Source of the DNA: Nemertoderma westbladi
Lineage: Eukaryota > Animalia > Xenacoelomorpha
NCBI GenBank assembly: GCA_032718475.1
Contig: JAUCBJ010001692.1
Location: 1 to 64,000 of the forward strand
Reading direction: 5' to 3'
Length of the DNA stretch: 64,000 nucleotides
Part shown: piece by piece, positions 12,850-52,592 of the stretch
How positions within the stretch are numbered: position 1 is the first letter of the stretch
How the letters are laid out: every line of letters begins with the position of its first letter
Position numbers and translations under genes: made by a program
Notes under the pieces: generated by a model
Databases searched by the model: none
What the model was told of the DNA's origin: nothing
Seen by the model: the letters and a program-made list of their open reading frames with translations, nothing else

Positions 12850-15800
12850 GGGCCTCTGATCCCCGCACCATCACCAAACCCCAAGCCCCGCCAACTGCGT
12901 CATCCACCCCGGATGCATAGGGAGCTAGACCGCACCAACGCAAACTGGAGCCGGCGGCGAATTCCTCCGAGGATGCATCCTAGTCCTCTCTCTCGCATTC
13001 CTTCTCTCCTGCTAACCAGTGACTCAGCGAGGTGACGGATCAGAATCTGCGTCTCATCGCACCAGACCCCATCTGTTGTTCCGGCGAGGGGGGTGAATTC
13101 CATCCGTCGGGCTTCGCAGATCGAGCGGTAGTGTTCCTTCTTTACATGGCAGCGAGCTTCAAGGATTGACGTGGTGGACCGGTTGGTCTGTGTATATGAT
13201 GTGGCGTCAGCGTTAATTAACACAACATCAAAAGACGCCACACGTTGGTTTGACCAGATACCCCGAGCCACCAGATCTGCCCGAACACCTCCAACTTCAA
13301 GGCCCTCACGATCGGTATGACCCCGGGAGAGTGTCACTTCTCGCTCCACACAGGAAGGACCAACCACCTCAGCCATTAGCTGGCCAAAGACTTCGCGAAC
13401 CTCGTCGTGTCGTTTGATCACAAGCCCTCCGGTTTTACAGCTCAAGGCATGGGAGGTTGTAAAGACACCCCCTTACCATTTGGCCACATTTGTTGTTGTC
13501 AACTCTTTTGACGTTTATCTGTCCGAAACTGAAACTCCTCGATCAATTTATGATTATAATAAATTTACTAAAGATAAATTCTTATCTGACATAAATAATC
13601 CTTCAAATTGGACATATAATGATGACGCTATTTTGAAAGAAGAAAAATTCCAAGTTTTTTACAACAATTTTAATTTAATTTGTGCCAACCATTTGCCGAA
13701 AAAAACAATAAACCCGAAATTAATTCCGAAAAAACCATGGATGACAACTAACTTGGTCAAATGTGTAAGGAGGAAAAATAAACTATACACTGCTTTCATC
13801 TCAAACCCGTCGGATACAAATCTTTCACAATATAAAACCTACCGAAACACTCTCACAAAAATTATGCGTAATGCCCAAAAAAGTTATTACGAAAATGAGT
13901 TTCTGAAAAATCAAAACAATAGCAAAAAAACCTGGAAAACAATAAATACGGCACTACAAAAAGATCCAAAACATTATCGTCCCCCGTGAAAATCAAGATA
14001 GATTCAATAGATTCAACTACAACTGATAAATCTATTATTGCTAATATATTAAATAAACACTTTGCATCGATTGGGCCGCAATTAGCGAGTAAAATACCAA
14101 AATCACAAAGGCAACCAACTCGTTATGTAAAAAATAATAAATTTAATTCTTTCTCACTCATAGAACCCAGTGAAACTGAAATAATATATTTTTTGTTAGA
14201 TATCGACAAAAATGTCTCAACTTTTGACGAGTTTCCTGTCTTATTGGTCAAATTAGCTGCCCACAGCCTTGCCCCTAACCTAACTTATCTCATTAACCTT
14301 TCAATTAAAAATGGATTCTACCCAGATGCTCTAAAAAAGGCTAAAATAATACCAGTTTTCAAATCCGGAGATCCAACCGATAAAAACAATTACCGCCCGA
14401 TATCAATATTACCCTTATTCACAAAGATATATGAACGTGTAGTCAATTCCCAATTACTGACCTTCTTAAACAAATACGACCTGTTATCACCATGTCAACA
14501 CGGATTTCGTAAACACATAACGACAACGGACGCTATTCTTACTGTTACGGAACAACTACAGGAAACACTTGACAACGGTAGCTCTGCATGTTTAATATCA
14601 GTAGACTTAAAGAAAGCCTTCGACACCCTACTGTACCACATGACATACTGTACTACTGAAAAAATTAGATTGTTACGGGATACGGGGACTTCCATTGCAA
14701 CTTAAAGGCAGCTTCTTACATAACCGCTCTCATATTGTCTCTATTGATGGTATTACCTCAGAACCAGCTTTGGCCCCTTGCGGTACCCCACAGGGGGCTA
14801 TATTAAGTCCCATTTTGTTTCTTATGTACATAAACGACTTACCGCTCTGCACAAAACTTTTCACCACACTCTTTGCAGACGACACAACTTTACTCTATTG
14901 CCATAGCAATACTGACACACTAATCTCGACAGTCAATACGGAACTCTCTAAATTAGACAATTGGCTCATTGACAATAAATTATCCCTAAACCTTAAAAAC
15001 ACTGAATATATAATCTTTAACAACTCTAGGAACTATATAACACCCAACATCACTATTAGATCCACTAATCTTACGGAAGCTACCGCCACTAAGTTTTTAG
15101 GTATATATATTGATAATAAAATTAACTGGTCGACTCATTGTGAATACATACTCTCTAAAATATCCAAATTATCTGGTATTTTCTTCAAATTGCGACACAT
15201 TTTACCTCTACACATTATGAGAACCCTGTACTTTGCACTAGTTCACCCTCACATACTGTACGGAATTTTAATGTGGGGAAATAGCTACAACTATAACACG
15301 TCGAAAATAAAAGTAAAAATAAATAAGATAATCAGAGCAATAACATTTAGCCATTACCAAGCGCATGCAGCACCTATTTATAAATCTCTACAAATCCTCT
15401 CACTAGAAAAATTATTTGACCTAGAAGTAGCTAAATTTATGTACGACATTAACAAACATAAGAAAACTGAAACCATGCAAAAAATATTCCGTCACACAAG
15501 TACAATACACAAATATTCCACGCCCTCTGCTTCTACACAAAAGTTCTTTGTCCCTCGTGTCCGCTTACAACTTTCCCAAAATTCTATAAAATATACAGGA
15601 CCTAAAATTTGGAATGATTTACCCTTAGAACTTAAAAACTCACTATCTAAAAATGCCCTAGCAAATAAATTAACAAAACGTTTTCTTGATACCTTGTCTT
15701 GAAGCTGGTAAAGATTCCACAAATAAAGTATCCACTTTGCGACTTAGGCATACTGTCCATACTCAAGTTAGACCTATACTGTATTTATCTATGTTTGACC

Positions 15801-17570
15801 TATATACAATAAAACATCTCCAATATATCCAATGTGCAGTATATTCCTGATGGGTCCCACTAGCTAGCAACTGTTTCATAAACATGTTTTTTTACATTCC
15901 GAGCACCTAAATTATCTCCTTTCGAATCTATCGAGTAACACCCCCCCCCCCCCCCCCGCCTCTCCTGATCAGTCCACTAAACCTTTCACAGTCATGCACC
16001 AGTGGAAACCTATACTAGCTTTGCTACAGCTGACCACTGGCTGCACCCCAACACCCCACGGCTACGGCATATTATCATTAGGCCTATCATATCACCCACA
16101 TTCATGAATAAATACTGATCAACCTTAAACATTTTATGGTGACCTTTGGTGTTGGGTTTTTGCAATATACTGTATAACGATATCGAAAGGCGAACTTCCG
16201 AAATTAAAGGCCCGGGCCTATCCCGGATTGAAAATTGAAATTGAAATTGACCCCCACACCCTTCACATTTGTCTGGAGTAGCTGGTGGGGTGAGGCCGTA
16301 ACGAAGGGCTAACCCATCTCTGAACTCGTCGGGACTCAGATCGGTGTGGTCCAGAACTGATGGCTGTGCTGTCAACCACCCCCCGATCTTGTATTTAACT
16401 GCACGCTCGACAGTCCTCCTCCGAGCCACAGGCAGCGATGAGACCACAGACTCCCGTTGCTGTTTATAGGCCTCTTCCTGATGGATGCGACTTTCCTGCA
16501 ATACACTTCGGAGGTGTGCAGCATGATTTGCTGTATTTAGAGGGCTTTGGGTGCAGATTGCTTCAGTAACAAGAGCTGACGCGCATACCGAGCCAGTCCG
16601 GGCAGGACCGACTCTCTTAAGGGGGTCCCGCAGACCAATCCCACCATGGCGTACGGGTAGGAGGGCAAGATCCCTCTCGATGACACTGTGTGCAGTACCA
16701 AACAAGGACGGGACAAAGTCCTGAATCAGTGCTGTGCGGATGGGGGCAATATCTTCTTCCACTGTTGGGGCAACTCTTAAAAGAAAATCCCATTCAGCTT
16801 GCACGCACCGGGACATCCCGGTGTGGGCGGCTTGGGGGAAGTCCTTGGCAACCTCTGAAAGTTTTTTGATGCTAGATACCCAGCCCTCTACTTTGCCTGC
16901 GACAAACTCCCTGCGTGCTGACTCATCCCCAATGAAGCCGCCCAGATAACGGTGGCCTAAAACCACCTGGACCCCACTGGGACCAAACAGCGTTTTGGCT
17001 GCCTCTTCAAGACCGGGTTTAATTATTAGGATGGATTTTGTAGGTTCTGGGTTATACCCTATATGAGGTCCCTGTCTGAGTAGCTCGGTCCACCACTCAA
17101 AGACTCCTGTGAGTGACCCTGCTGAAGAGGAGTCGTCAGCATACCATGATTGGCGTTGTGATGGGGCCGGTGTTGGTAATGTCAGGTTTGTTTGCGGGGT
17201 GGTTTGTTGTGGAGGGTGTGAAGGTTGGGCCAGAACCGGGACTGCACGGAGGTTGCGAATAAGTGGTAGTGTTGCACAGCCATACCCAAGCATAGCCAGA
17301 GGATCACCCTGGGTGAATCCCTCCTGACTCCAGAGTGGTGCGTCACTGCCTAGCATATAGAGGGCTGCATGGCCGTTATATGCATTATAGAGAAACTTAG
17401 ATGCCCTGTGCCAGTATTGCCGACAATTCCAAAGTGCTACTGGGCGACTTATTGCATTAAATGCATTCTTTGCATCAACTAATAGTAGCGCCTCGGTTGA
17501 ATCTTCTTCGAATATGGCATTCATCGCATGGACTGCTCCCTCAATACCTGCCTTTGTGCCTGCACATAGT
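12850..17570 (-). mobile_element. CRE-clade-like non-LTR retrotransposon (RT + CCHC + restriction-like endonuclease), 5'-truncated and split by a LINE
   Basis: The RT half (ORF 16010-17524) has LLVDAKNAFN, QGDPLAM and WYADD. The RLE half (12900-13445) has RHD..RADL..FDV..KKEHY..FTPLAGTTDG. Removing the insert restores the knuckle CEGCGG|VFTTSHALSC. Confidence 0.8.
13473..16249 (+). mobile_element. CR1-group (L2/Crack/Daphne-like) LINE, 5'-truncated, frameshifted ORF2
   Basis: Three consecutive ORFs with KPWMT, NYRPISIL, QHGFR, DLKKAFD, GTPQGAILSPILF, LFADD and KFLG; 3' tail of (attgaa)n; ACCCCC duplicated at both junctions. Confidence 0.9.
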
Positions 17571-17668
17571 GTAATAAATAGTTTATTTATCTATAAACAT
17601 TTAACATTTTTTTTTTAAAAATACTAATTATCAGGCTAGCTAGTGATTTTCCAAGTTAGCTACAGTAT

Positions 17669-18550
17669 TGTTCGCGCTTTTAGACCTTTAGCAGTTTAAC
17701 CTGCCAAATTTAGGTGTCTTCTAGGTTATAAATCGACTTTAGCCTATGACAAGTATTTGATACACATAAAACTACATTAGCCGAAGCCAGCCTATGCGCG
17801 ACCATTCACCCACTGGATTTACCCGGGAGACTGGATTCAGAAGCTCTGACCTTATTGCGGTGTAGGCCTACTATATTATTCGATTGATCGTTAATATATA
17901 ATCTCTGACAAATATTATTCACTTTCGGGAAATATTAACAGTTCCTTTAGGACGTGGCGCTCTAAGTATGTAAACAGAATTATGACTTACACTAAACACA
18001 ACGGGATGGCTATTGATTCACGTATAAAGCGCATTCTTTAGGAGATGCTTTGTTATCTATCACACTCATGCACACTACTGCACAATGCTGCACACCGATC
18101 TGCCGACCTTCACTAATTTTAATCATATATAAGGAGAACAGCCAATGACACATGTAGGGTCTATGAAATAGCATTCAATTCACTCCAAAACCACTATAAT
18201 GTAAGTCGCAATTGCTATATGTAACCGGTCTCTCTAACCTTCAGTATATCAAGAAGATTGGGGTTTTCTGATTATTTATCGATATTCTCCAAATATAACA
18301 ATATTCCATCAACTGATACAATTAATAACCGACAGTAAATAGCAGTAAAAATAATGCGGTGTTTGTATGTGACAATATGAGCAGTTTGTGATATGCAGAT
18401 TTGGTTTGCCAGTTTTGTTAACAGTTATACGTTTCTATGATCAAAGCCGTTCTAATGTTTGGCTAAAGTCTGAAACACAGAATAATTCCAAAGCCGGTGT
18501 TCTGGGCTTAGAAAGATACACACTGACTGAATTGTGTGAGTTTCTGTATG
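17669..18550 (-). repeat. Element B 3' LTR, distal part (continues at 31205-31513)
   Basis: Near-identical to 44834-45745. Confidence 0.95.
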
Positions 18551-19721
18551 TGTAAAAGCTTTTGCGTCATTAACCGGTTATTTTCCCTTAAAGTACTCTG
18601 TAGTTGGTTTACCAGGCATAAAAAGGCTGTGTCCTTGCTGTACTGGTGTTTTAGAGGACATAAAAGTCATTTCTTCTGTATTTGTACTTTAGAGGACATA
18701 ATCCGCAATCTCGTGACGCGATAAGCTAGATACTCTTGAAAACAGTGTCGCTACCATGACGACGGCTAACAGCTGATATTGCCACGTCGACATTTCTTTG
18801 TTTCTTTGTTCTCTCGTGGTTCGGTTGACCAATCAGAGCGTTTTTGTCTCTGTGTTGGAGGTATATACAGAACTCAGTAGTTCAGTGTTATGTTTTTTGC
18901 CCAGAGCCTAAGAACATCGGCTTTTGGCACCTCCGTATATCAGCATTCTTTAGCTTTACATTAGTAGGCTTAATTATAGAACGTATATCTGTTATCATAC
19001 AAATCAAACTACTTACAAACCAATTCAATGCTGTTCAGTGTTATTGTTTATATCTTACTAATATTACTGCTTTTGCTGTCGGTTGTTCATTATATTGGTT
19101 GATGAAATATTATATCGGAATACTGATCAATAGTCAGACACCCCACCTTCTTGATATACTAAAGGTTAGAGAGACCGGTTACAGATAAACGATTGCGACC
19201 TATGTTGAGTGGTTTGAAGTGAATCTAATGCTATTTCATATGCCCAACATAAATTGTCTGTTGCTCTCTTTATACGTGACCAAATTTAGTGAAGGTCGGC
19301 AGATTAGTGTGCAGTATTGTGCAGCATTGTGTATGATTGTAACTGATAACAAAGCATCTCCTAAAGAATGCGCCATATACGTAAATCTATAGCCTTTTCG
19401 TTGTTTCTAGTTTAAGTCATAACTCTGTTTACATATTTAGAGCGCCACGTCCTAAAGGAACTGTTAATATTTCCCGAAAGTGAATAATATTTGTCAGAGA
19501 TTATATTACGATCAGTCGAATAATACGGTAGGCTTACACCATCAATCATTAAGCTCCGAACTCAGTCTCCCGGGTATATCCAACGGGTGAATGATTGCGC
19601 ATAGACTGGCTTCGGCTAATGTAGTGTATCAAATACTCGTCATAAGCTAAAGAATATATATCATCCAAAAGACATCCTAATTTGGCAGGTTAAACTGTCA
19701 AAGGTCTTAAAAGCGCAAACA
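18551..19721 (+). repeat. Element A 5' LTR
   Basis: tgtaaaagc...gcgcaaaca; CCAAT motif accaatcagagcg at about 18829 is conserved in all LTRs of the family here. Confidence 0.95.
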
Positions 19722-19733
19722 ATAACAGATATA
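19722..19733 (+). promoter_or_regulatory. Non-tRNA primer-binding site of A, complementary to LTR-internal 18984-18995
   Basis: ATAACAGATATA directly follows the LTR CA, with no TGG. It is the exact reverse complement of TATATCTGTTAT in the LTR. Confidence 0.65.
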
Positions 19734-20002
19734 GCTTCTGGATTGCGGTGTAAGCAATCTAGTCGAAAGTACCGGTCGACCGGTAACCAGTAGGCCTGAC
19801 TGCCTGATCATCCGGACCGGTACCTACAACAGTACAGGTACAGCAGTATTATTCGATTTGATTATTATATGCCGGTAGGTCTTAATAATTAATCGGGGAC
19901 GCCTGGTTTTTATTGGGATTTTACTTAGGCCTATTTCTGTCAGTTTTATTTATTTGTAGGCCAGTATTGAGCAGAAGGCGTGTAAGCCTGCTCAGATTGT
20001 GC

Positions 20003-20575
20003 AGATAATTTGTAGGCTTGACTGTTGGCAAACTGTTGATTAGGTTTGAACGGATTGCAGTGCATGTAGAGTGTATGTCCGATAAAGAACGGTTAGGAAG
20101 TAGGGGCAGCCATAGCTGTAAGGTAAACCCCCATCTAAAGAATAAGTCGTACTACTGGGTTAGAACGCATACTACTTAACCATTTCGGAGTCTGCATGTC
20201 CTGTGGTTTATTTAGGCTTGATAGTAGTCTGCCATCGTTTAGTCTGTACTTTGTTTGTGTAGTCTGTACGGGTAGCGTATAATTTTATTTAGATAATTTG
20301 TAGGCTGGATAGTTGTCTGGCTGCTGTTGGGTTTGAGGAAATTTCGGTGTGTGTAAAGCATCTGTCCGATAAAGAACGGTTAGGAAGTAGGGGCAGCCAT
20401 AGCTGTAAGGTAAACCCCCATTTAAAGAATAAGTCTTACTACTGGGTTAGAACGCATACTACTTAACCATTTCGGAGTCTGCATATACCGTAGTTTGTTT
20501 AGGCTTGATAGTAGTCTGTCAGTATTTGGTCTGCATTTTGTTTGAGTAGTTTGTACGCGTAGCGTAATATTTATT
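20003..20575 (+). repeat. 288-bp tandem duplication in the 5' leader of A
   Basis: Units start with agataatttgtaggct at 20003 and 20291; B has a single copy (about 44265-44550). Confidence 0.85.
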
Positions 20576-21910
20576 ATTCAGAGTTTATGCTATTATTCGC
20601 AACATTCATATCCCCAAGTTTATTCCTACAGTAATTGTGTTTGTTATACATACCGTTATAGTTAAACTAACCCCGGTACTACATCAGGGCTGCTCGGCGT
20701 AGGTAAAGACTGGTGATTTTGTGCACCGGTCACTCTGGCAGATACCGTGGTTCTTTTAGCTGTTCAAGTATTTTTAACTACTGATTATTTGTTGTACAAG
20801 TACTTGTACCTAATTTAGGGTTTAGTGTACAGTGCTTTCCGAAAGCAATTAGTGTATAGGCAGTGTATTTGTGTTGTAAAGTGGTTAATAGGCACGTTGG
20901 TTCTGGTAGACCGCGGTAATTAACTTCTAGGTAGGGACACTCCGTGATACATAACGTAGTACCTATAGCGATACGGTTATAGGTCGTCAGGCGGTGGTAT
21001 TTTCCTATCTGGACAACGCAGTATATTTACTACTACTTATTATTTTCAAATACCGTAGTAACCTGTCCGTTGTAATAACCAGATATTCTAACCCTTTGTT
21101 AGGCTGGTTAGTAGACTTCTTGTAAAATTACCCTAAAAATTTGTATTTGTGTATTTGTAATTAAATTTTTGTGTTTACTTAGAGATTGTAATCTCAACCC
21201 GAATTGTACGTAATTTGTAGTATTAAGTAACTTAGGTAAATTAGAATTATTTGTTTTAGTGTCTAACAAGTAGCACTCCACTGAGAGCGCACAGCTTATG
21301 TGTAGTGACTCCCCCAGAAATAATAACATTTATTTCAACATTGACAAAAACCCATTTCAACGGGTATATATATATTATAAATCAACTCAAACGATTTATA
21401 AATAGTAGGCCTGCCATACAACAATTAGGTCTCAATATCAGTTGGACTACTGCTTAAATAACGGTAATAAAGTAAGTTAAAGTAACCAAGTAACCATTAA
21501 AATTCAGAAATTCAATTATTTAAAATAATTGATATACCGGTATTTACAATATGCTTATTACCTTTATTTTCATAAACTTAAGCTGAAATCATACCGGTAT
21601 TCTGTAATTAATTCTAGTTAATAATTATACTTATATATACTATAAGTGTAAACTGCATACCGGTATCCACGATAGGCCTATTATATATTTATATATATTT
21701 GTGCTAAAATTATATACCGGTATTCTGTGAAAAACCTAGTCTGTAATAATACTTATATATACCCTAAGTATACCGGTATTCTAATATTATATATCACGCT
21801 ACACTGAGTAGCAGTATCGGTAATTAATTACTAGGCTAGCAGTTAACACTGAATTACTAGACTTGCTTTGACTGTAATATAGCAGTAGGCATTCAACTGT
21901 GCAAACAAAC

Positions 21911-24900
21911 ATGTCTGATACTAAGCAGAACATGTCAGACAGTTTATTAGATGTAACTATCTGCGACTCAGATAAGGGTGTAGAACCGTCTACACCTAAG
22001 TTCACCTCCCACTGTGAGGAAGGTCATCCCTCCAGTAGTAATAACAGAACCGAGGCTGGTCCAACATCGTAGGTCTATCATAGGCACTCGAGCTCAGGTC
22101 AAGCGGGACCAAGAAGCAGCGGAACAGCAACAACTTGCGAGCCAAGAACTTATTTCTCAGCGGCCCAACAGCTCCAGTAGTGAGGATACTGTAGAGCTGA
22201 CACCCGAGCGCGGAGCAAGGATGACGGATGCGGTTTATTCGGATCCCCTTCTCATCCTTCCTGCAGCCGTACTCACTAGGTTATTGATCGCTGTAGAAGA
22301 ACACCAGATCGATTGGGCGAGAAGTAAGCGATCAACTAAAGATAGTTATGAGGGATACACAAGGGAAGAACTGAAGTCTATGGTCGAGTCGCAATGGAAC
22401 TTCCCCGGACCCGGACTCCCGTTTGATTTATCAGAAGCTGCCTGGGAAGACATACACCGGATGGGAGTAGCCAAGGAAACCATCGATCCAGCTGTGTGGA
22501 AGAGGTCCGCAGCCGGATACGCACAGGGATTCTTCAGCTCTATGGAGCGAGTAAAAGAACAACTGTTTCAACAACCTCAAGGACCTCAAGAGCAGGGACA
22601 ACTGCTTTATCAAGTTAGAGAAAGAATTCTGCAAATTAGGCTAATCTTATCGGCCTTCGAGGAGGCTTCTAAAAGAAGACAAGACACGTCGTTGCAAGTT
22701 GCCGTAAAGACTTGGTTTCAACGGGTGAGTCGCCAGGTTCAAGGAACAGCTCAGTGGAAAGCTCAGCTGGAGGAGCGCTCAACCCATGGAGAATCAACAG
22801 ACGCTACTTTTTCCCAAGTGGAAAGTGAAGCGACGGCAGAGAAACCGCATAAGAGGGATGCCATTGACATCTATCTGTCAGACTATCAACGTTTTTTAGG
22901 TGATGAAGAGTTGAGGAGAAGGTTAGAGGGGCTTAGCCCTAATAGTGAAGGAGCCCAGCGTGTGTTGGACGCAATCGATGTGGATAGGTTAGCTGCGAAC
23001 CAAGCTAAATTCAATGAAAGCATCCGCATCGCTAAGGTTCAAGAAGAACAAGTAAAGAAAAAACGTATAGAAGATAGAAAGAAAGCGGCAGAGGCAGCGG
23101 CAGAGGCAAAAGCGGCAGCGGCAGAGGCAAAAGCGGCAGCTGCAGCAGTAGAAGCCGAAAGAAAGGCGGCCGAAGCGGAAAGAAAGGTGGCAGCTGCAGC
23201 AGTAGAAGCCGAAAGAAAGGCGGCCGAAGCGGAAAGAAAAATAGCAGTGGCAGAAGCAGAACGGAGGGCATCTGAAGAGACAACCCAACTAGAGTTGGAA
23301 AATCTTCAAGAGAGACAAGACAACTTTAATAAACAGTTAACAGCTAGTAATATGCAGATGATGAATCGATCTACTCCCAAAAGACAGGGATATACATCAT
23401 CTGAGGAAGGCGATACCACCGATACTGAAGGCAAAGGAAATAGATCTCACTTAAGCAGACGTAAAAGAACATTCCAACGTCAGAAATTGCCTGATTTGCC
23501 TCCAGCTGTTAGAAGGCAACTAAATAACACCAACTTAGGTAGTACAGAACCCACAGACCAAATAATTACAATAGAGAGACTCCCTACTATAGTAGATGAG
23601 CCTGAAATAGTTAGGCCTGTTCCCGAAGCCACCCTTTCGGTCGTAGAGACACCTTTACTCCCTGAACCTACCTCTCAATTCCCGTTGCACAGCACTAAGC
23701 TACCTGTGCCCAGCAGAACAGCCCATGAGACAGTTCATGCCCTGGACTCCGAGCGAAATATTCATGATTTGTCGCCCGTTGTCCCTCGTCCGCCCGCTAC
23801 AACGTTGGCGGATCCCGTTTCGGCGGTTGATTGGGTGGACGAGAGACGGCGGGGGATGGACATTCTCCTCGAAAAGATGGAGGAGAATCGAGTACGCTCC
23901 TCCCAACAGGTCCGAGAGTTAGAAGGGACTGTTCAACAGTTAAAGGGAACCGTAAAGGAAAGTAGGTTAGAGTTGCAAGAAGTACAGCAAAATATCGCGC
24001 TAGAACGTGATAAATTAGTAAATTTACAAAAGGGTATACCACCACCCCTTGTAACAATGTGTCAACCTGTTAGGTCTGAAGTATCTCATGCGCAAGGTGT
24101 GGAGCCTACACGCATCTATACTGCTAGCGAAGTAGAAACTCCTATAGTGAACCCTATTAAGGGTAATTATAGACCTGTTGATAATGATATTCTCTATAGA
24201 CCGGATCATAATCCGAGAAATTTATATACCGATAACTCGATATTAAATAACACGATGGCCCAAGAAAGTTTTACGCGTCAAATGGCTAGAACCGAAGCCC
24301 GGCAAGCGGTAAAGGTGGGAGAGATCGTCAAGTTCAATGGAGATGAGATGAAATGGTTACCTTTTAATGAATATTACAAAGATAACATACAGAACTCTGT
24401 GCTATCTAATGGAGAGAAACTTAGATTCCTCATCGAGTGCTTGGAAGGATCTCCCAAGTTAATGGCGTTAAAGTTTATTGGACATCCTGACGGATTAAGA
24501 CAAGTTTGGGATACACTAAAATCAGGTATGGTAATAGGAATAACATAGCTGGGTATTTGTATGCAAAGTTAGTAGCGCCCCGAAAGTTTATTAGCAGCGG
24601 GATTATAGAGTTTTCCGACGAGATTCAGGAGATCTGTAGACAATTAGATTGGCTAGGTAAGTCTCATGAGTATCAGAGTGCTATGGTTATTAGAGCAGTG
24701 GCTTCTACTTTACCGAAGGGTGGAGTAGGTACACGCTGGGATAAGAAAGTGTTATATATGATGGAACAACAACGACGAGACCCTACCATGGCTGATCTCA
24801 TGTCATTCCTAGATGGAGAAGTGAAATTACAGCTCCTGAAACTGTCCAGAGAGAAGACACCGGAAAACAAGGTAAGTGAAAAACCCGTCGCTAGGAGAAA

Positions 24901-27636
24901 GGTAACACCAGTGTGTTATACAGATGATGGCGAAAGCCAGACTTCTCAAGGAGAAGATAGCGGGAAAGATACTGACAGATCTTATTACGTAAATAAAATG
25001 CCTAAAGATCAGGTAAGTAAATTCAAGTCTCGAACAAATGACAGGAGAGAACAGGTAAGAAAAACTCCTACGTCTCCCAAGAGAATTCAGGTGAGAAAGC
25101 CCGAAGAAAAAGCAAGTGTACACAATGTTACTCAGAGTAAAGTAAGTAACATCAAACCGAAATGTGCGCTATGTGATGGGACCCATCGCTTAAATATGTG
25201 TGATGAATTTCTAAAGAAATCATTAACTGAGAGACGTGAAGTCATGTGGGACAAGCGGTTGTGCTATAATTGCCTCAGACAAGGACACCAACGGCGAACC
25301 TGTTACTCTGACACAAGATGTGCCAAGTGCGGTGCGAAACATCATATCTTGTTGCACACTGAATTCGAGCGAAATAGTCCGAGTCAGGTAAGTGATTCCG
25401 AACTACATGTCCAATTCAGTGATGTGAACGACACTGATCAATCTAAGATGGAAGGATTCTATACGGACGAGTTCTCCGACGAAAACGAATCCTGTTACAT
25501 GATAAATACCACAGTGTATCGAGCACTCATTTATGAAAAAGATACAGACATTGACCTCGCTCTAACTACTTCTGATCGACAACCATCTTGGAAAGCGCCA
25601 ACTTCCAATGTAGGGATTAGAGAATTTCCTGTGGTACAGGTAAGGGTCCATGGACCAAAAAGGAGTTATGTAGTGAACGCCCTCCTTGACTCCGGTAGTA
25701 CAGGAACATTCATCGACAAAGAGCTAGCCGAAGACATATTCGCTGGACAACCCAAGTTCCGAACTAAGCTAAACATGTCAGGAATTATGCAAGTTTGGAA
25801 ATCCACAGTAACCGTGGATTATTATGTAGGTGCGTTGTCCGCCCCCCAGGACGAACTAGGAGAACATAGCATAAGGTCAGTGAAAATGGTGGCTATAAAG
25901 AACTTCGCTACTACTCAAGCAGACCTTTATAATTGGGGCGAGGATGAGAGCATCCAACATCTTAAGATACCTCGATTCCAGACAGATTATCCTGGAGTGC
26001 AAATACTCATCGGTCAAAATGCGCATGAAGCGCTCGAGACATTAGAGAAACGACCTGCTCAACCGCAACCTCTACAAGTTTATGCGGGAAGAACTAGAGT
26101 AGGTTGGTACTTTACTGGCCCTTCCCGTAGAACTCTCATGGAAAGATTACCGAAAGACCAGGTATATCAAGCACGAGAATGGGAAGTTGAGAACAGTGAG
26201 TTCGACGATCCAACTGAGGGAACTCCATACTCCTCAGACAACGACGATATACATCAACTCTTCGATGAGGAGAATGCCATCGATCTCCTTAAGGAAAGCG
26301 AGACTTGGCAAAATCAAGTGAACTTATGTCAACTCCTTCTCCCATCCGAGCGAGACGACTATAACGACGAGCTTAATGACGTCATTGAACGTTATAATGC
26401 CAAGACTCGGGATGAACACGCCGTGAGATTCTTTACTCAAGAGGTCGTAGAGCCCAACTCCTACGATAAGGCCCTATCGGTGGAGGAAGAAAGAGCCAAG
26501 CAGATCCAAGCGACAACTACTCGTTTCTTAAAGATCAAGATAGGTATGAGATCGGACTTCCTTTCCGAAAGCGAGAACCAAAGTTTATTAACAACAGACC
26601 TTTGGCGGAGAAAAGAATTGCTCAACTACATCGACGCCTTACGGCAAATTCTTCAGCTAAAGAAATGTATAAAACACAGTTGAAGAAGTTTATTAGCAAG
26701 GGATATGCGGAGCTAGTACCGGAAGAAACCCCTATAACTGAGAGAACGTATTACTTAACTCACCATTACGTTCCCAAACCCGGTAAACCCCATGAAATAC
26801 GAGTGGTGTTTGACGGTTCCGCCCTTTATATGGGCCAATCTCTTAATTCTGAATTGTTACCCGGACCCAACTTACTCCAATCCTTGTTGGGAATACTACT
26901 AAGATTAAGACAATACTCCATTGCTTTCGCCTCAGATATAGAAGGCATGTTCTTACAAGTCAAAGCGCTGGATAGGGATGGAGATAGCCTACGATTTTTG
27001 TGGTGGCCTGAAGGAGACCTCAATAAGAAACCGGTGGAGTACTGGATGACCATCCAAGCTTTTGGGATAATCTCGAGCCCTTCAAACGCCTGTTCCGTGG
27101 TACGCACCACTGCGGATGACAACCGAGACACCTTCTCTAAAGAAGTGATCGACAATATCAAACGAGACATCTACATGGACGATAATCTGAAGTCCCTTCC
27201 ATCAGTCGAAGAAGCCATTGAGGTCGCTAAAGGAACGGTAGAGTGCTTAAAAAGAGGTGGATTTCGATTAACTAAATTCACCAGCAACTCCCGTGAGTTT
27301 CTGGAGTCGATCCTGGTAGAAGATCGAGGAGTAAAAGACCTAGATCTAATAAAGGATGATCTCCCAGAAACTAAGACCCTTGGTTTGAAATGGGACACAG
27401 AAAGAGACATCCTGTTTTTCCAATTAAAACAGCGAGATAATCCAGTTCGGACTAAACGGATTTGTTTAAGTATCCTGAGCACTTATTTCGATCCATTGGG
27501 ATTTATTAGCCCAGTTATATTGATTGCTCGGAGTTTAGTACAACAAATGTGGCTTGAAAACCACTCATGGGACGATCCACTTAAGGGAGAATTATTAAAG
27601 AAATGGATGAAATGGGAAGATTCTCTGTTATTGTGA
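21911..27636 (+). pseudogene. Element A gag-protease-RT polyprotein, frameshifted and truncated after RT
   Basis: Probable ATG at 21911; frameshifts near 22010, 24520 and 26530 relative to B; BEL gag KFNGDEMKWLPF, triple knuckle CALCDGTH..CYNCLRQGH..CAKCGAKHH, protease LLDSGS, RT RVVFDGS/DIEGMF/YMDD. Confidence 0.92.
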
Positions 27637-29006
27637 TGTGTTATCTCTCTGATGTGTTATTCGAGGAGGAAAGAATACAACGATATGGAGATGTGGAAAC
27701 ATATACCACACAATATTTAAAGTATAAAGACCTGCCTAATGCTAGCGAATGTGCTACCTTGTGGCATCCTGTGGGAATGACAATCGAAAACGCCACTAAA
27801 GAGTGGAACGAAACTCTTAACGTTATCGAGATGTATGGAGTTGTCACTTACGATAACGAAGGTAGCGTTCCGGTTGGAGAACTTGGAACTACGCGGATGA
27901 TACACATACGAGGACTCGCTGGTTCTACCCACGTATTTACTCGAGCATGTTCCGACGTTATTGATTATTCTTTTGAAACTCTTACTGAGACACAAAAGAA
28001 ACTCCGACATGGACAATTTGAACTCGCGCAGCGTTACGTCACCGACACCGAGCGCAAGCCGGCCATGGGTATCGATGGATCGATGTTACCCCAACCCGTG
28101 CTCGAGATGCTGTTTAACGAAGGAATCCTTAAAATCGGCTCAGCTGTTTATGGAGACCTACAGAACGACTTTCGGAATATGGAGAACATTCCATACCCCT
28201 TCGTTGATACTCAGCTGATTGCTCCTTGGGCAGAAGGCCGAGGTTTCTTCCGCACTATGTATGCCAATACACCCAGCGGAATTACCAAAGTACAACGAAC
28301 CTCCATCGGACATCTTGCCTTTCAAGAATACGGATGGAATTTCAAGGTTGGAAATCCTATAAATTACCAACAAGTATACGGAGATCATTATTCTTGTTTA
28401 TACTTTGATGGACCATTGACCGCACCTGGAGCCGTGTATAGCTTTATGAGTGTTCCACTTCGTCCCTCCTTAGCTATATACACGATCTTTGAAAACGCAG
28501 CACTTGCCGGTTGGCTAGCCGATGTGTGCAGTCGTACCATACGCGCCCATCCCTTAATACTTGGAACCAAACTCGCCAAGTTAGATGAACACAATAAATT
28601 CATCCGCTTTGAATGTTTCAGGCGCTTTCTGACTCCGTTCCGTAACGTTGATAGTCAGTTCAAGGACCGCGCTCTGACCAAACTCAGCCTGAGAGACTCA
28701 GCGGCGGAGAAGCTAAACAGCGCGGGATTTGCCCTTTTTCAGGACGTTTGTATACAGAACTTGCACTCATCTGTTATACAAAGACCCCGAATACCCACGG
28801 GTTATTCTGTCGTCGAAGTTCAGACAGTGGGTCCACTTGCGGAGACAGCCGCACCTACCTCAGCTATGCAATTGGAAGACGAACCAATATGCTTAGAAGC
28901 TGAAGCGATTCAGCCTACAGCGCCCCGGAGCAGCGATAATGACTACATCTTAAGAGTGGTATCAAGGTCCACAATATCTCACCACATACGATTATCGACA
29001 CGCTAA
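27603..29006 (+). CDS. Accessory ORF with a DEDDy 3'-5' exonuclease-like (WRN/EXD/Mut-7-like) domain; N-terminus lost by deletion
   Basis: ExoI VVTYDNEG (D codon at 27852); LPQPVLEMLFNEGILKIGSAVYGD (ExoII); FVDT; SIGHLA; ExoIII-like PLRPSLAIYTIFE (about 28455-28493). Confidence 0.65.
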   Translation: MDEMGRFSVIVMCYLSDVLFEEERIQRYGDVETYTTQYLKYKDLPNASECATLWHPVGMTIENATKEWNETLNVIEMYGVVTYDNEGSVPVGELGTTRMIHIRGLAGSTHVFTRACSDVIDYSFETLTETQKKLRHGQFELAQRYVTDTERKPAMGIDGSMLPQPVLEMLFNEGILKIGSAVYGDLQNDFRNMENIPYPFVDTQLIAPWAEGRGFFRTMYANTPSGITKVQRTSIGHLAFQEYGWNFKVGNPINYQQVYGDHYSCLYFDGPLTAPGAVYSFMSVPLRPSLAIYTIFENAALAGWLADVCSRTIRAHPLILGTKLAKLDEHNKFIRFECFRRFLTPFRNVDSQFKDRALTKLSLRDSAAEKLNSAGFALFQDVCIQNLHSSVIQRPRIPTGYSVVEVQTVGPLAETAAPTSAMQLEDEPICLEAEAIQPTAPRSSDNDYILRVVSRSTISHHIRLSTR

Positions 29007-29955
29007 CTATGTTTCTCGAAAACGTTGTCGATTATGCGCATCGAGAGACCATTTCACCCCTATGGACTCAGACGTACCCTGCTCCTATTTCCACGAACAA
29101 CCAATGATGGAGATATATTGTGCGTATTGCAGACTTAATAACTCTCATATTTTTGCAGTCTGCCCCCAATTTATGACTCAATGCCACCACTGTCAACTTA
29201 AAGGACATGCCAGTTATAATTGCCCCTTTAATCACGATTTAGAGAGCGTAGACGAAATGATTACCCTGCGATACATTCGAGCTTGGGAAGCGAACGCGGA
29301 TTTACATTGTGAGTCCCGTCATCGATACTACCCTGGACGCTCTTACGAGGGAGTTTACGCATTCCATCCTTATTTATTAGCGTCTGTGGAACAAAAAACA
29401 CGCATACCGAGTTACGAGCTAATGAAGCGTGTTGGTGAGTGTATTTCCACTAAATTTGTTAGAAGATACCTTAGGAACGTCAATCCTAACGATATTACTT
29501 CATACCATTTGATCAATTATATCCGTCAAGACCCTGAGTATGGCGATTTATTTATCAACTCGCACCCTGAGTTAAAGGAAGTATCTCGACGGCCCTACGA
29601 ATATCGAGCCCGAGAACGCGAGCTGGAAAGAACTATTAAACCAAGGAAGTTTCTCACCACCCCTGGTCCGCCTACCGCCATTACCCAGACAACCCGTCAA
29701 GGACCCGTAGGAGCTGCTGTCCTGAGGCGCGCCCTAAAGGCTGTTAGACCTCGCTCCACGGAAGTTGATATCGATCAACCAGGTACCTCGACCGGCGGAT
29801 ACACCGATCGCAATCCGAAACCTTCTGATGCAATTGTATTGCACCCTTCACCCAGGAGTTACAGCCCTCCTAGTAAAGTGGCTCGCCCCAAAGAGAAAAG
29901 GACTCTTACTAGCCTCAAAAAACTGCGTAAACGCCGTCCGCGTAAGAAAGACTAA
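28939..29955 (+). CDS. Accessory ORF with three CCHC zinc-knuckle-like motifs and a basic C-terminal NLS-like tail
   Basis: The frame is open upstream of the ATG at 29062 back to a TAA at 28951, with an ATG at 28939. Motifs: CRLC-x4-H-x9-C, CAYC-x5-H-x4-C, CHHC-x4-H-x4-C. It ends KKLRKRRPRKKD. Confidence 0.7.
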
Positions 29956-30033
29956 CTGTTTAGAGTATTTTTATATTTTAGAAACTGTGATTTGTTATAT
30001 TTTATAGACTTAAATCCCATTTTCTGGGAGCGG

Positions 30034-31204
30034 TGTAAAAGCTTTTGCGTCATTAACCGGTTATTTTCCCTTAAAGTACTCTGTAGTTGGTTTACCAGGC
30101 ATAAAAAGGCTGTGTCCTTGCTGTACTGGTGTTTTAGAGGACATAAAAGTCATTTCTTCTGTATTTGTACTTTAGAGGACATAATCCGCAATCTCGTGAC
30201 GCGATAAGCTAGATACTCTTGAAAACAGTGTCGCTACCATGACGACGGCTAACAGCTGATATTGCCACGTCGACATTTCTTTGTTTCTTTGTTCTCTCGT
30301 GGTTCGGTTGACCAATCAGAGCGTTTTTGTCTCTGTGTTGGAGGTATATACAGAACTCAGTAGTTCAGTGTTATGTTTTTTGCCCAGAGCCTAAGAACAT
30401 CGGCTTTTGGCACCTCCGTATATCAGCATTCTTTAGCTTTACATTAGTAGGCTTAATTATAGAACGTATATCTGTTATCATACAAATCAAACTACTTACA
30501 AACCAATTCAATGCTGTTCAGTGTTTTTGTTTATATCTTACTAATATTACTGCTTTTGCTGTCGGTTGTTCATTATATTGGTTGATGAAATATTATATCG
30601 GAATACTGATCAATAGTCAGACACCCCACCTTCTTGATATACTAAAGGTTAGAGAGACCGGTTACAGATAAACGATTGCGACCTATGTTGAGTGGTTTGA
30701 AGTGAATCTAATGCTATTTCATATGCCCAACATAAATTGTCTGTTGCTCTCTTTATACGTGACCAAATTTAGTGAAGGTCGGCAGATTAGTGTGCAGTAT
30801 TGTGCAGCATTGTGTATGATTGTAACTGATAACAAAGCATCTCCTAAAGAATGCGCCATATACGTAAATCTATAGCCTTTTCGTTGTGTCTAGTTTAAGT
30901 CATAACTCTGTTTACATATTTAGAGCGCCACGTCCTAAAGGAACTGTTAATATTTCCCGAAAGTGAATAATATTTGTCAGAGATTATATTACGATCAGTC
31001 GAATAATACGGTAGGCTTACACCATCAATCATTAAGCTCCGAACTCAGTCTCCCGGGTATATCCAACGGGTGAATGATTGCGCATAGACTGGCTTCGGCT
31101 AATGTAGTGTATCAAATACTCGTCATAAGCTAAAGAATATATATCATCCAAAAGACATCCTAATTTGGCAGGTTAAACTGTCAAAGGTCTTAAAAGCGCA
31201 AACA
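30034..31204 (+). repeat. Element A 3' LTR
   Basis: Same length as the 5' LTR; only two substitutions noticed by eye. Confidence 0.95.
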
Positions 31205-31513
31205 GTATGCACTGTCCAACACAAAATGAAAATCGCTCTGATTGGTTGAGCCGAACAAAGAAAGCCAAAAGCTACACGTCGACATCTCAGCTGATAGATG
31301 TCGTCATCTGAAATACACTGTATTAAGAGTATTCTGGTGCATTGCGGCATAAAATTGCTAGTTATGTCCGCTAAAGTACACATACAGAAGAAATGGCTTT
31401 TTATGTCCACTAAAACACCTGTACAGTAAGGAAACGGCTTTTTATGTCCGCTAAAACACCTACAGAGTACTTTGCGGGGAAAATAACCAGCTAATTCCGC
31501 AAAAGCCTTTACA
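31205..31513 (-). repeat. Element B 3' LTR, proximal (U3) part
   Basis: Matches 45741-45900 plus 47968-48100; abuts the PPT ccgctcccagaaaatggg. Confidence 0.95.
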
Positions 31514-31591
31514 CCGCTCCCAGAAAATGGGATTTAATTCTATAAAATATAAAAAATCACAGTTTCTAAAATATAAAAATACTCTAAACAG

Positions 31592-33130
31592 TTAGTCTTT
31601 CTTGCGCGGACGGCGTTTACGCAGTTTTTTGAGGCTAGCAAGAGTCCTTTTCTCTTTGGGGCGAGCCACTTTACTAGGAGGGCTATAACTCCTGGGTGAA
31701 GGGTGCAATACAATTGCATCGGAAGGTTTAGGATTACGGTCGGTGTATCCGCCGGTCGAGGTACCTGGTTGATCGATATCAACCTCAGTGGAACGAGGTC
31801 GAACAACCTTGAGAGCGCATTTTAAGACAGCAGCTCTTACTGGTGCCTTACGGGTCATTTGCACGAGAGCGGTAGGTGGACCGTGTGTAGTGAGAAATTC
31901 CCTCGGTTTGATGATTCTTTCCAACTCACGTTCTCGGGCTCTATCGGGATCGATATGCTTCTCCTCGAGCTGATTTTCCTCCGCTTGTCGTTGAAAGCAT
32001 TCGTCCAAAACTCTTGCAGAAAGTAGAGTCGTCCAAGTTCGAAATCTTCTTAGAGATTCTGGATTTCCTGATCGAACTGAGATAAAGCTAATTCGTTTAC
32101 CGCTTGGACTTGTTGTTGCAATCTCTGAACAATCGTAGGTTCCTTTTCCGATCTTTTTGCCGAATAATGTCTAACGCGTTTCGTTCAACTCTCTCCTCCA
32201 CCTCGGTGACAGGTTGTTTCGTGTTAAACGGGGACGATTATACGGTTGAATGGCGATATTAGGTGTCCGCGTCCCAATCCGGCTAGGTAAGATGGGCGAA
32301 TATTTAGGGAGCCCACAACCGGAGTGCCACCGACTAACCGTTCGGGTAACACTAGATCTTTGAACAGTGAGTACAGTTCGGGAGGATCCGTGATACTATT
32401 AGGATCAAGAGTCTGAGGTCTTAACTAGGGAATGAGGAGGTCTGACCGAGTATTCCGGAACTCTGATCATAGGTTTATTTAAGGATCGTTTGAATCGAGC
32501 GAGCGTAGGTGATACATCGAACAAGTTTCGCTCGAAACTCCCAGAAATATAGCGAGTAAAACCGTGTTTAAAGCAACGTCTCCGTGGATGTTTATGTCTT
32601 TCCGTTTGTTGGTTGGGTCTTGGGCATTCATCGCAATAATACCAAAGACGCACGTCTTGTAGGGGAAACGCGGGTGATATTTATTCGGTTTTACAATGTT
32701 TCTCTCAAGAATTCCAAATATACGTTGGAGTTACCGCGTTTATCCGGTTCTTTAACGTCTTCTCTTTCGAGTCGATTTCGAATAGAATTTTCGCATTCGA
32801 TTTTCAGTTTATCATTCCGACTCCGCTGGGTAGGATATTTAAATAGTACCATTTCCCTTTCGGTGTCGACATAGTCCGTATCGTGTAAATCGATAGGATG
32901 GCCAGTAGTTAAGAAGTCCATATACGTACCATTACGATGCGTATAGCGAGCGGTGAATTTTCTATAGTACAATTCAGGCGTAAGTTGCTTCTGGGACATC
33001 GGCGGTTCGATATAACGACCATCGTCCTCCGTAGTAGTTGGACTAGCGTCGCCGCGTATCAAGCTATCCACAAACGCTTGCAACGGTAGAGTACCCTGAT
33101 ACCAAGATCATCTTCTATCAACTCAGTCAT
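31592..33130 (-). pseudogene. Element B accessory ORF remnant (fragmented); only the last ~115 codons are homologous to A's zinc-knuckle ORF
   Basis: ORF pieces 32691-33083, 32405-32653 and 31592-32008; shared tail RARERELER..RRPRKKD. Confidence 0.6.
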
Positions 33131-34830
33131 ATCTGCTATATGAGTTTATCAATATTATAATTAGTTATAATTAGGCTAGCGGGCGTCGCTGCCTACCCCT
33201 CACGGCCCCCGGACAGTGTAAGATCCTCAGCGCTGATGTACTGTCGCCGCTGTGCCTATCGCCAACATAGTAGCTGCACAACGACAACAACGACCAGCGC
33301 GAGTCATCCACTGTCCGTCCCAAAGGCTTAGATTTACTTCAGGTTCTTACTGCAGAGTTAGGGCTACTTTAACAATTGCGACTCGCTACTGTAAACACAC
33401 TTTAGTAGTAACATTCACCTATAAACGCACAAATTCCACACAACTGTCACAAACCGCACACATTCGGGCCATTTGTCCGTTAGTCAAGTGCCTTCCAGAA
33501 TGCCACGTTATTATTGGGTATCCTTGGATACTAGCAGTGTGCTATTATTCCTTATGCTATTCAATGGGCAAGCTTTATTGTTCTTTTAACTCACTTCTAA
33601 TTCTAGCGTGGTTGTTGCCATGGTGACATTATGGAAAGCTAGCCGTAGAATTAGGGTAATTCTCATGCATACAGATCTGGGATGCTATTTAATAGTAATT
33701 CTTTAATTGTCAATATTCCTCTTTATACATGATTTTATGAATTTTATCGGCTATTGACTATATATTGGAGATTCTCGCACACTAATACACTTAATAGGGT
33801 GAATCTCCGCTCCCATGATCTATTAATTAATGGAATTTTGGGAATGTTACAAATTGTATAAAAATGACAATTTATCAAATTCATTAAAAGATATGAATTT
33901 AAATTTATTCCCGTAAATTTTATTATTTAATATTAAATAGACACAATTTTATTCCAGAGCATGTCTGGGGACTAGGATCCTGAATTCTAGGAAATTTGTC
34001 CTTTTAAGAGTATCGGTAGGTGCTACGATATCTTAATAGACTAGAATTTTAAAGGATCTAAAATTTTATAGATTTTAATTTATAGAATTTCTAGAGTTAA
34101 CTTGTAAGTAGTTACTCTATTGTATCTATTTGACAGATTTTATAAATATTAATAGTTAATATTTAAGATGGGCACCGGTTTATTCCAGAACTTGTCTGGG
34201 GACGTTAACCACTGATTCTAGAATTTTGTCTTTCAAGTATATCGGTGGGTGCCGTGATATCTTAATCGACTAGAATTACAGATGGTCAAAGGGTTTAACA
34301 GATTTATTTTGCGTTTTACGCTACTGTTAAAGGGACATCACGCTACTATATGTATTATTTAATATACGGTATGAGAGCAATATCGCAAGAAGCAATGTCA
34401 GTGAGAAGAGGCAAGTCGTTTCCAAGGTCTACCCAGAGCTTGGTTTAGCCGAGACACGAGGATCTGAATTTTGCATTCCTAATACTCTACTTACCAATAA
34501 TACTTGAATATAGTAGGAGCTTTATTGTACTTTAATAAGTACGGACATTTCATCTTACTATAGTCACGTATTTATAATATGATACGGACAGTAAGGAAAG
34601 AGAAAAATAATTATTTCTCGCCGTCGCACTAAATATATAATATATAAGTAATTAAGTAATAAACACTAATATATATTGCACTAATCTACTAAATAATCGC
34701 TAAAATAACATTCTACTAAATAAAATTAAAGAAAACGATTAGAATAAAATTACATAATAATACATACATAAATATAAAATAATAAGAACAAATATAAAAT
34801 AATATAGTCACACACCCACTCCAGACGCTG

Positions 34831-50408: not shown

Positions 50409-51577
50409 TGTTCGCGCTTTTAGACCTTTAGCAGTTTAACCTGCCAATTTTAGTTGTCCTCTTGTTTATAAATCGACTTTAGCCTATATCGATTATTTAG
50501 TGTACTGAAGTTACATTAGCCGAAGCCAGTCTGTGCGCGATCATTCACCCACAGTTAAGGGAGACTGGATTCGGGTGCTTTGAAAGTTATTGCAATGTAG
50601 ACCCACTGTATTATTCGATTGATCGTTACTATATAATCTCTGACAATATATTTACTTTCGGGGAAATATTAACAGTTCCTTTAGGATGTGGCGCTTTAAG
50701 TATAAAAACAGAGTTATGACTTATACTAATCACAACGAGATGGCCACAGAGTTTCGTAAATAGCGCATTCTTTAGGAGATGCTTTATTATCTGTCACACT
50801 ACTTCACACGACTTCACACTACTTCACACTACTGCGCACTAATCTGCCGACCGTCACTGAATTTGATCACATATAAGGAGGATTACAACTGACACAAGTA
50901 GGGATTATGAAATAGAATTTAATTCACACAAAAACCACTATAATGTAAGTCGCAATTGCTACCGGTAACCTGTTCCTCTTACCTTCAGTAATCAAGAAGA
51001 TTGGGGGTTTTATGATTATTTATCGGTATTCTCCAAATATATCATCAATATACATCAATATAACAACAATTAATAACAGACCGTAAACAGAAGTAAAATA
51101 ATGCGGTGAACAGTCAGTATGTGTTACGTAATGCATTGAGTTCAGTAATGAGATAGGTGAGATTGGATTGATAATAGATTTACGTTCTTATAATCAAAGC
51201 CATCTAATGTTTAGGCCAAAGTCTGAAACTTCCAAAACAGAAGTACAGAAGATTCCAAGCCGGTTCTGAGGCTCAGAAAGGTAAACAAAGACCGTAATGC
51301 ATTGTGCGGGTTTCCATAGGCCCCTGTCCAACATAAAGTGAAAATCGCTCTGATTGGCTGAATAGGCAGAACAAAGAGGTTCCACGTCTACAGGAAATCA
51401 GCTGACAGATTTCGTCATCTGAGCTCCAATCTCTTCCCGTCACGTAGGGGAACAAATTCATGGCTATTTTTAGAGTATTCTGCGCATTGCGGCAAAAATG
51501 ACTTGTTATGTCCGCAAAAGCACCTACACTGCGCATTGCGGGAAAAATGACTTGTTATGTCCGCAAAAGCTTTTACA
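50409..51577 (-). mobile_element. Solo LTR (C) of the same BEL lineage
   Basis: tgttcgcgcttttagacc...aaaagcttttaca, 1169 bp, 5-bp TSD TGATA (50404-50408 / 51578-51582). Confidence 0.92.
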
Positions 51578-51761
51578 TGATAGTTAAATAACGTACTTAA
51601 CGGTTGACGAACGAGTACAGTGATTTTATAAAGATTGACAGGCTAACTGGTAGTAATCTTATATCATCGCTTCCGCTTGGGATGCTTGGGTGTACTTTGC
51701 ATAAATAGTCGTTTCCTCTTCCTCACAGGCGTTTGGGGCGCGGGTAACGTCATGTCATTGC

Positions 51762-52551
51762 TGTAAAAGCTTTTGCAGACAAAATAAGTCATTTTGCGCA
51801 ATGCGCTAAATACTCTAAAAGGACTTATAATTGTACAACTGTCAAAAAACCCAGAGTTGTAATGACGAAATCTACCAGCTGTTCCTTTGTGTGAGAACGC
51901 TCCTTGTTGACATATATTTTTAACCAATCAGAGCGATTTTGCCTTCTCTGTTTACAGTGGCCTACGGAAGATGACGCAATGCGGCAGTTTTCCGAGAATT
52001 CATGCTTGATTCAGGATTCATTCGGACGTTCTGACTTTCAGACTTTGCCCTAACATCAGAGGCTAGAGTTATAAGAACGCAAATCTATTAACTCAATTCA
52101 TACCATCGTATCACATCGAAACATATTGCATATCACTCGACATATCACATACTCTTTTCACCGCACTGCTTTCTAATATACTGTTTTATATTATTGTTAA
52201 TTGTTGTTTATATTAATGGATGTTATATTTGGAGAATACTGATGGATAATCGTAAAATCCCCCTTGACTTTCTTAATATACTGAGGTAAGCATAAGGGTG
52301 TATCAGTAGCAATTGTGGCTCAATTTATACTGGTTTTTGTGTGATATAAATGCTATTTCATAATCCCAACGTACGTGAGTTGCAATCCTCCTTATATGTG
52401 ATCAAATCAGTGACAGTCGGCAAATCAGTATGCATTAGTGTGTATTAGTGTGAAGGTTAATAAAGCATTCCTAAAGAATGCGCCATTTGCGATACCTTAT
52501 TGCCTCTAGTTGTGATTAGTGTAAGTCATAACTCTGTTTGATACTTAAAGC
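51762..52551 (+). mobile_element. Truncated LTR (D) of the same BEL lineage
   Basis: Starts tgtaaaagcttttgc, contains accaatcagagcg and stays colinear with the A LTR up to gtcataactctgttt. Confidence 0.85.
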
Positions 52552-52592
52552 AGGAATTCGACGGGTCTCGTTGCGCCCGAGTCGACAGCCGG

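Follow-up and report, generated by a model that had tools for sequence, protein, structure and literature searches.

A candidate DEDDy-class exonuclease gene with zinc knuckles in the third-gene slot of a BEL/Pao retrotransposon from Nemertoderma westbladi

The window, by which we mean the whole 64,000-nt stretch of Nemertoderma westbladi DNA that was analysed (positions 1 to 64,000 of contig JAUCBJ010001692.1, assembly GCA_032718475.1), contains an LTR retrotransposon on the + strand at 18551-31204, here called element A. Its 5' LTR (18551-19721, +) and 3' LTR (30034-31204, +) have the TG...CA ends and the 5-bp target duplication looked for in a BEL/Pao element, the duplicated GTATG standing just before the first LTR (18546-18550) and again after the second (31205-31209). 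The pair shows 2 mismatches over 1172 compared bases, and near-identical LTRs together with GTATG on both flanks indicate that the insertion of element A is recent. Element A is nested in opposite orientation in the 3' LTR of another element, B (17669-18550 and 31210-31514), and part of the LTR is self-reverse-complementary between A and B (19064-19724 against 17666-18348, 81%), forming a long imperfect inverted region. Elsewhere in the window, separate broken reverse-transcriptase frames at 13321-15702 (+; RVT_1, E about 1e-10) mark another retroelement, and two further long frames, one of 683 aa with 24-30-nt tandem repeats at 2163-4214 (+) and one of 526 aa at 16010-17590 (-), gave no convincing Pfam match.

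The gag-protease-RT part of element A (21984-27626, +) is spread over three frames and is of BEL/Pao type. Three Cys-His motifs lie within 24491-26683, in gag, accompanied by a weak DUF1759 match (E 0.1), a combination which we take to be a mark of BEL/Pao gag proteins. The pol region matches Peptidase_A17, a Pfam family specific to Pao elements (E 1.7e-14), with DUF1759 and Asp_protease_2 weak. Of the Pao-type order protease-RT-RNase H-integrase, Peptidase_A17 is found in both A and B and the downstream part in B only, which keeps the RNase H-integrase side (Integrase_H2C2, E 2.7e-7; DUF5641, E 1.6e-20). The gag-pol of A is 88% identical to that of B as far as 27626, where the match ends; pol in copy A stops near this point, before RNase H and integrase, at what we regard as a deletion joint. 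Splicing as the source of this deletion was ruled out, as the sequence of B past the joint does not start with GT. Lacking RNase H and integrase, copy A would have been mobilised by a helper element.

Behind the joint, between pol and the 3' LTR, lies ORF-X (27585-29006, +), 473 aa from stop to stop with its first Met past the joint at 27636. An earlier note on this DNA had placed an exonuclease in the env slot of the element, and both this position and the motifs it quoted hold: all of them are present, in the order given, in this one open frame. They outline a DEDDy-like 3'-5' exonuclease domain at 27774-28553 (+), whose putative site residues are D90 (27852), E92 (27858), D191 (28155), Y299 (28479) and E303 (28491), with LPQP at 28086, FVDT at 28200 and SIGH at 28302. 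The domain contains two insertions, about 30 extra residues lying between ExoI and the LP motif. The end of ORF-X is overlapped in another frame by ORF-Y (28954-29955, +), where three knuckles of CCHC type (29026-29223) are encoded together with a basic tail. The best 19-residue hydropathy is 1.19 in ORF-X and 0.59 in ORF-Y, so that neither frame has a membrane-like segment of the kind expected for an env signal peptide or anchor, and we do not regard the product as env-like.

The relationship between the two frames is clarified by a single homologue, P0001, the only protein returned by phmmer from 1.84 billion representatives (648 aa, E 2e-4) and a singleton on a 9.4-kb contig. P0001 and ORF-X share 30% identity over 150 aa; P0001 carries DxE, LP-x10-KVG-x5-D, DTQ, GLGH and PL-x6-Y-x3-E, followed by three CCHC knuckles, which match those of ORF-Y (pairwise E 5e-5) and through which it also matches retroviral nucleocapsid chains. 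As exonuclease and knuckles are joined in one P0001 chain, ORF-X and ORF-Y are probably a single gene that was frameshifted in copy A at 28954-29006, ORF-X being its N-terminal part; we refer to it as the cargo gene. Searches for further relatives added little. Word-indexed homologue searches recovered nothing among 886 candidates and P0001 alone among 907 and 7995 candidates, no relative was found in the viral contigs searched or by pattern in prokaryote genomes, and plasmids and phages gave chance-level rows alone (E 3-10). The ESM Atlas yielded no usable match; phage adaptor clusters found there (0.87-0.88) fell under chance level and were dropped. One of 148 stretches from a metagenome scan, the fragment L001, has 25 matched residues and a weak PF01612 score (E 0.05), and we treat it as a lead rather than as support.

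How firmly can the exonuclease domain be assigned? With ORF-X as the sole query, neither Pfam nor the PDB sequences gave a match. Among 18,950 NCBIfam models two matched, each of them an RNase D model (E 0.015 and 0.036), the NCBIfam score of 14.5 bits lying below the curated whole-protein cut-off of 299. P0001 reached 11.9 bits against Pfam (E 0.2; curated cut-off 23.6), such that no library match of either protein passes a curated cut-off, and a two-row profile run against the PDB returned three matches, RNase D at E 1.2 alongside two unrelated proteins. We therefore turn to comparisons with their own controls, using four profiles built from PF01612 domains of proteobacterial genomes (a motif filter dropped 2 of 40 short loci and passed 16 of the 30 first loci), the subsets of which carry RNase D, WRN-like and NrnC-like labels of our own, assigned by their sequences. 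ORF-X scored 19.0 bits against the RNase D profile (16 rows), a score reached by none of 1000 shuffles, the best of which gave 4.4, and 10.0 bits against the pooled profile (54 rows), again reached by 0 of 1000. Against the bacterial WRN-like profile (13 rows) it scored 2.5 bits, equalled by 1 shuffle in 1000, with ExoI and ExoII aligned in order, and against the NrnC-like profile (25 rows) -2.6 bits, with 315 of 1000 shuffles as good.

A blind test in the reverse direction gave a concordant result. The two-sequence profile of ORF-X and P0001, run across 301 genomes, matched in 119 of them with an E of 1 or lower, mostly through positions 112-160 of the profile; in the 61 genomes scanned with both profile and family, 19 of 24 checkable matches fell inside PF01612 domains, and the DxE...YxxxD pattern is present at 25 of the 30 best loci. 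A 61-row MAFFT alignment has invariant columns for D, E, K, D, K, L and Y, including the ExoI DxE and the ExoII Asp of ORF-X, which P0001 shares, and E303 falls in the conserved ExoIII Asp column. The identity of ORF-X to the aligned cellular DEDDy rows is 11-24% throughout. The signal is concentrated in 45-50 residues around ExoII, with ExoI and ExoIII placed by alignment and spacing. Both the shuffle controls and the blind PF01612 overlap put the homology above chance, and because these weak but independent matches point one way, to the DEDDy exonuclease class, we consider it very probable that ORF-X has a DEDDy fold, as the earlier note had proposed in naming a DnaQ-like family.

Structure prediction agrees with this assignment within limits. 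An unguided single-sequence fold of ORF-X gave no usable model (pLDDT 29.4), whereas a fold guided by the 61-row alignment reached pLDDT 59.6 and a pTM of 0.62. Averaged by block, the confidence of the guided model is 75-92 in the three motif regions and falls below 50 at residues 33-70, 73-90 and 171-224. Every listed PDB match to the guided model is of the DEDDy class (RNase D, EXD2, Nibbler, Rrp6, Egalitarian, EXD1, WRN and Pol I), the best being RNase D (Z 15.0, rmsd 3.3, 170 aligned residues, for this alignment-guided model). As 59 of the 61 alignment rows are themselves DEDDy proteins, the guided fold shows compatibility with a DnaQ-like fold and is not proof of it. The motif order and spacing (DxE; LxxxxxxKxxxxxxxD; DT; PLxxxxxxYxxx[D/E]) and the predicted fold are those of RNase D, WRN-exo, EXD2, Nibbler/Mut-7 and Rrp6; these cellular enzymes are accompanied by HRDC or helicase domains, whereas the predicted protein here has CCHC knuckles, a Glu at ExoIII and two insertions. 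Within the class, the K-[IV]-G that precedes the ExoII Asp resembles WRN, yet the profile scores favour RNase D, for bacterial sets only, and the gap in guided-fold Z between RNase D (15.0) and the WRN/EXD side (13.8) is small. Of the earlier assignment to a WRN/EXD-like DEDDy enzyme the class is supported, whereas the scores (19.0 bits for RNase D against 2.5 for bacterial WRN-like) do not single out WRN/EXD or any other subfamily.

The site departs from the canonical one at ExoIII, where a strict Y-x3-D is absent: ORF-X and P0001 both read Y-x3-E, with the Tyr and the spacing kept. The earlier note had taken the Asp-to-Glu change as a sign of possible inactivity, and we accordingly weighed whether the domain is catalytically dead, an RNA-binding module of the EXD1 or Egalitarian kind, which would package or localise the element RNA or block a host trimming enzyme. 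The Glu in both known members, the two long insertions, the three nucleocapsid-like knuckles and the presence among the fold matches of Egalitarian and EXD1, proteins that have this predicted fold and probably bind RNA, would all fit such a module, as would the fact that one matched Egalitarian entry, 9rw6, contains a retrotransposon RNA signal. However, the Glu is also found in P0001 together with all other site residues, which makes it a common trait and not private decay of copy A, and D, E, D, Y as well as an acidic residue at the fifth position persist in two proteins with 30% identity. In dead EXD1 proteins the acidic residues are gone (SDLN, AELE; from the accessible part of PMC4712191), so retention here favours a working site, and the case for inactivity is weakened to the point where we consider a dead module fairly unlikely. 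Judged by this conservation, the chances are somewhat better than even that the D-E-D-Y-E site has retained two-metal binding and cleavage. Our literature search turned up no study of what an ExoIII Asp-to-Glu change does.

Whether the cargo is native to the element family is a separate question. The exonuclease likeness could have arisen by chance, or a gene of the host or of another transposon could have been captured once and carried neutrally. The library scores under cut-off, the frameshift in A, the position behind a deletion joint and the uneven distribution among the related elements of the window agree with a passenger of this kind. The 3' region of element B (31508-34830, -) shows no trace of an exonuclease; it has only the final 437 nt ahead of the LTR in common with A and contains different, broken cargo frames. 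The cargo of B at 31950-33600 (-) has Cys-rich stretches and a basic tail as in ORF-Y, and those of its frames that were scanned matched nothing in Pfam. Element C (50409-54200, -), an internally deleted relative, has a gag-like frame followed by a piece like the C-terminal part of ORF-X and by the ORF-Y tail, with the exonuclease core and the knuckles absent. Variant sites in ORF-X and ORF-Y are 6 silent and 5 non-silent at 11 listed places, pre-selected and too few to judge. Set against this, the piece in C (52626-52883, -) is 47% identical to ORF-X aa 377-442 (E 1e-9) and occupies the same slot, about 1 kb upstream of the 3' LTR of C. The stretch was also found in four DNA runs from three studies of a single organism, with 30 of 30 element bins covered in all four, and diverged gap-free copies exist: among the pieces listed (32 of about 160,000, short and ending before the flanks of the diverged copies), run X4 contains a 420-nt contig that spans 27936-28355 and has 61 differences, and the knuckles are spanned by two contigs of 350 nt, with 19 and 40 differences. 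These copies, the piece in C and a G+C of the cargo gene close to that of pol (0.46 against 0.44) indicate that the cargo is not a one-off insertion; a one-off insertion is what the earlier note had said would speak against its reading. Together with the architecture common to P0001 and the shuffle-controlled scores, they make a mere passenger most improbable. The absence of the exonuclease from B shows that the gene is optional within the element family, and the cargo slot looks swappable between sister elements.

This optional status also bears on what the enzyme might do. Directly behind the 5' LTR of element A is a self-primer-like primer-binding site (19722-19733, +), complementary over 12 nt to the LTR-internal sequence 18984-18995, an exact match whose length was reached by 4 of 2000 LTR shuffles. 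Element B has a site of the same type (10 nt, 44833 downward and 45623-45614, -; reached by 16 of 2000 shuffles). The two target a homologous spot, each in its own LTR, with one compensatory change between them, and in both elements a short inverted repeat follows the site. From these sequences the sites suggest Tf1-like self-priming in a BEL/Pao family, for which our literature search found no earlier report.

An active enzyme could accordingly be a replication helper that trims the 3' ends of the element's own RNA or cDNA, whether at the self-primer, in strand-transfer intermediates or in proofreading. The self-primer-like sites of A and B, with their compensatory change, are in keeping with such a role, and there are proposals of a similar kind in the accessible parts of two papers: for the rotifer ORF3, Rodriguez et al. 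suggested that it processes the 3' ends of element RNA (PMC5408684), and the DEDDy domain of Dada transposons was proposed to process cleaved ends (PMC3706591). However, B has the self-primer-like site and RT-RNase H-integrase and lacks an exonuclease ORF, and in Tf1 the primer is made by RNase H, according to the part of PMC4600332 that was available. Supply in trans from A-type copies would be possible, yet the dispensability of the gene in B argues against a core replication role, including the trimming of a self-primer that the earlier note had suggested, and we regard a replication helper as unlikely.

Our preferred reading, to which we give about an even chance, is that the third gene of this BEL/Pao element encodes an active but optional RNase D/WRN-class exonuclease with three knuckles that binds RNA and trims 3' ends. 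The cargo product would be an accessory factor, an RNA-binding 3'-5' exonuclease in which the zinc knuckles bind RNA, the likely ligand in view of their nucleocapsid-like character, and the DEDDy domain trims its 3' ends. Nibbler and Mut-7 provide an analogy for action on host silencing RNA. By this analogy, the target may be host small RNAs or their precursors, whose trimming would serve counter-defence and not core replication, a proposal that we make tentatively as possible rather than probable. The more specific picture, in which the DEDE exonuclease and three knuckles of this BEL/Pao lineage are an anti-piRNA counter-defence in a swappable slot, from a family spread among distant mobile elements, appears doubtful as a whole.

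DEDDy cargo in LTR retrotransposons is already known from bdelloid rotifers, and this precedent, which like the fused zinc knuckles is overlooked in the earlier note, lowers the surprise of the present case. According to the accessible text of PMC5408684, bdelloid Juno and Vesta LTR elements and Athena/Terminon elements carry DEDDy ORF3s that were gained at least twice, and the same case is repeated in the available parts of PMC6431247 and PMC5718144. Like the gene described here, the bdelloid ORF3 is RNase D-like, lies after pol as a third ORF that is not env, has a patchy distribution in sister families and is altered in its acidic motif. The differences, as far as that text goes, are that the LTR carriers are Juno and Vesta and not BEL/Pao, that the motif is written DEED as opposed to DEDE here (compared as written and not position by position), and that only a Cys-His-Cys motif is mentioned, whereas three knuckles follow the domain here. 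The accessible part of PMC3706591 describes another transposon-encoded DEDDy domain, in the Dada DNA transposases of Laccaria and Ectocarpus; there it lies inside a DDE transposase and keeps DEDD, whereas here it is a separate retroelement gene with DEDE. Our searches found no report of a DEDE site, of a knuckle fusion to a DEDDy domain, or of a BEL/Pao element with an exonuclease; as Repbase, the Terminon paper and the bulk of the subscription literature lay outside the search, a prior record of the last is possible. The features for which we found no precedent are thus a BEL/Pao element as carrier, a DEDE site common to ORF-X and P0001, the joining of three knuckles to the domain, and a slot whose cargo is exchanged in a close sister.

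The use of non-env third genes in LTR retrotransposons is mostly obscure. As the exonuclease domain is uninterrupted in copy A it can be assayed as it is, and if the DEDE site is active it would widen the notion of a working DEDDy site. A second group of retrotransposons with DEDDy cargo, in which a close sister lacks it, suggests a repeated benefit and offers a natural comparison of elements with and without the gene. Should host silencing RNAs be what the enzyme trims, small RNAs would be the direct target of a suppressor encoded by the transposon itself.
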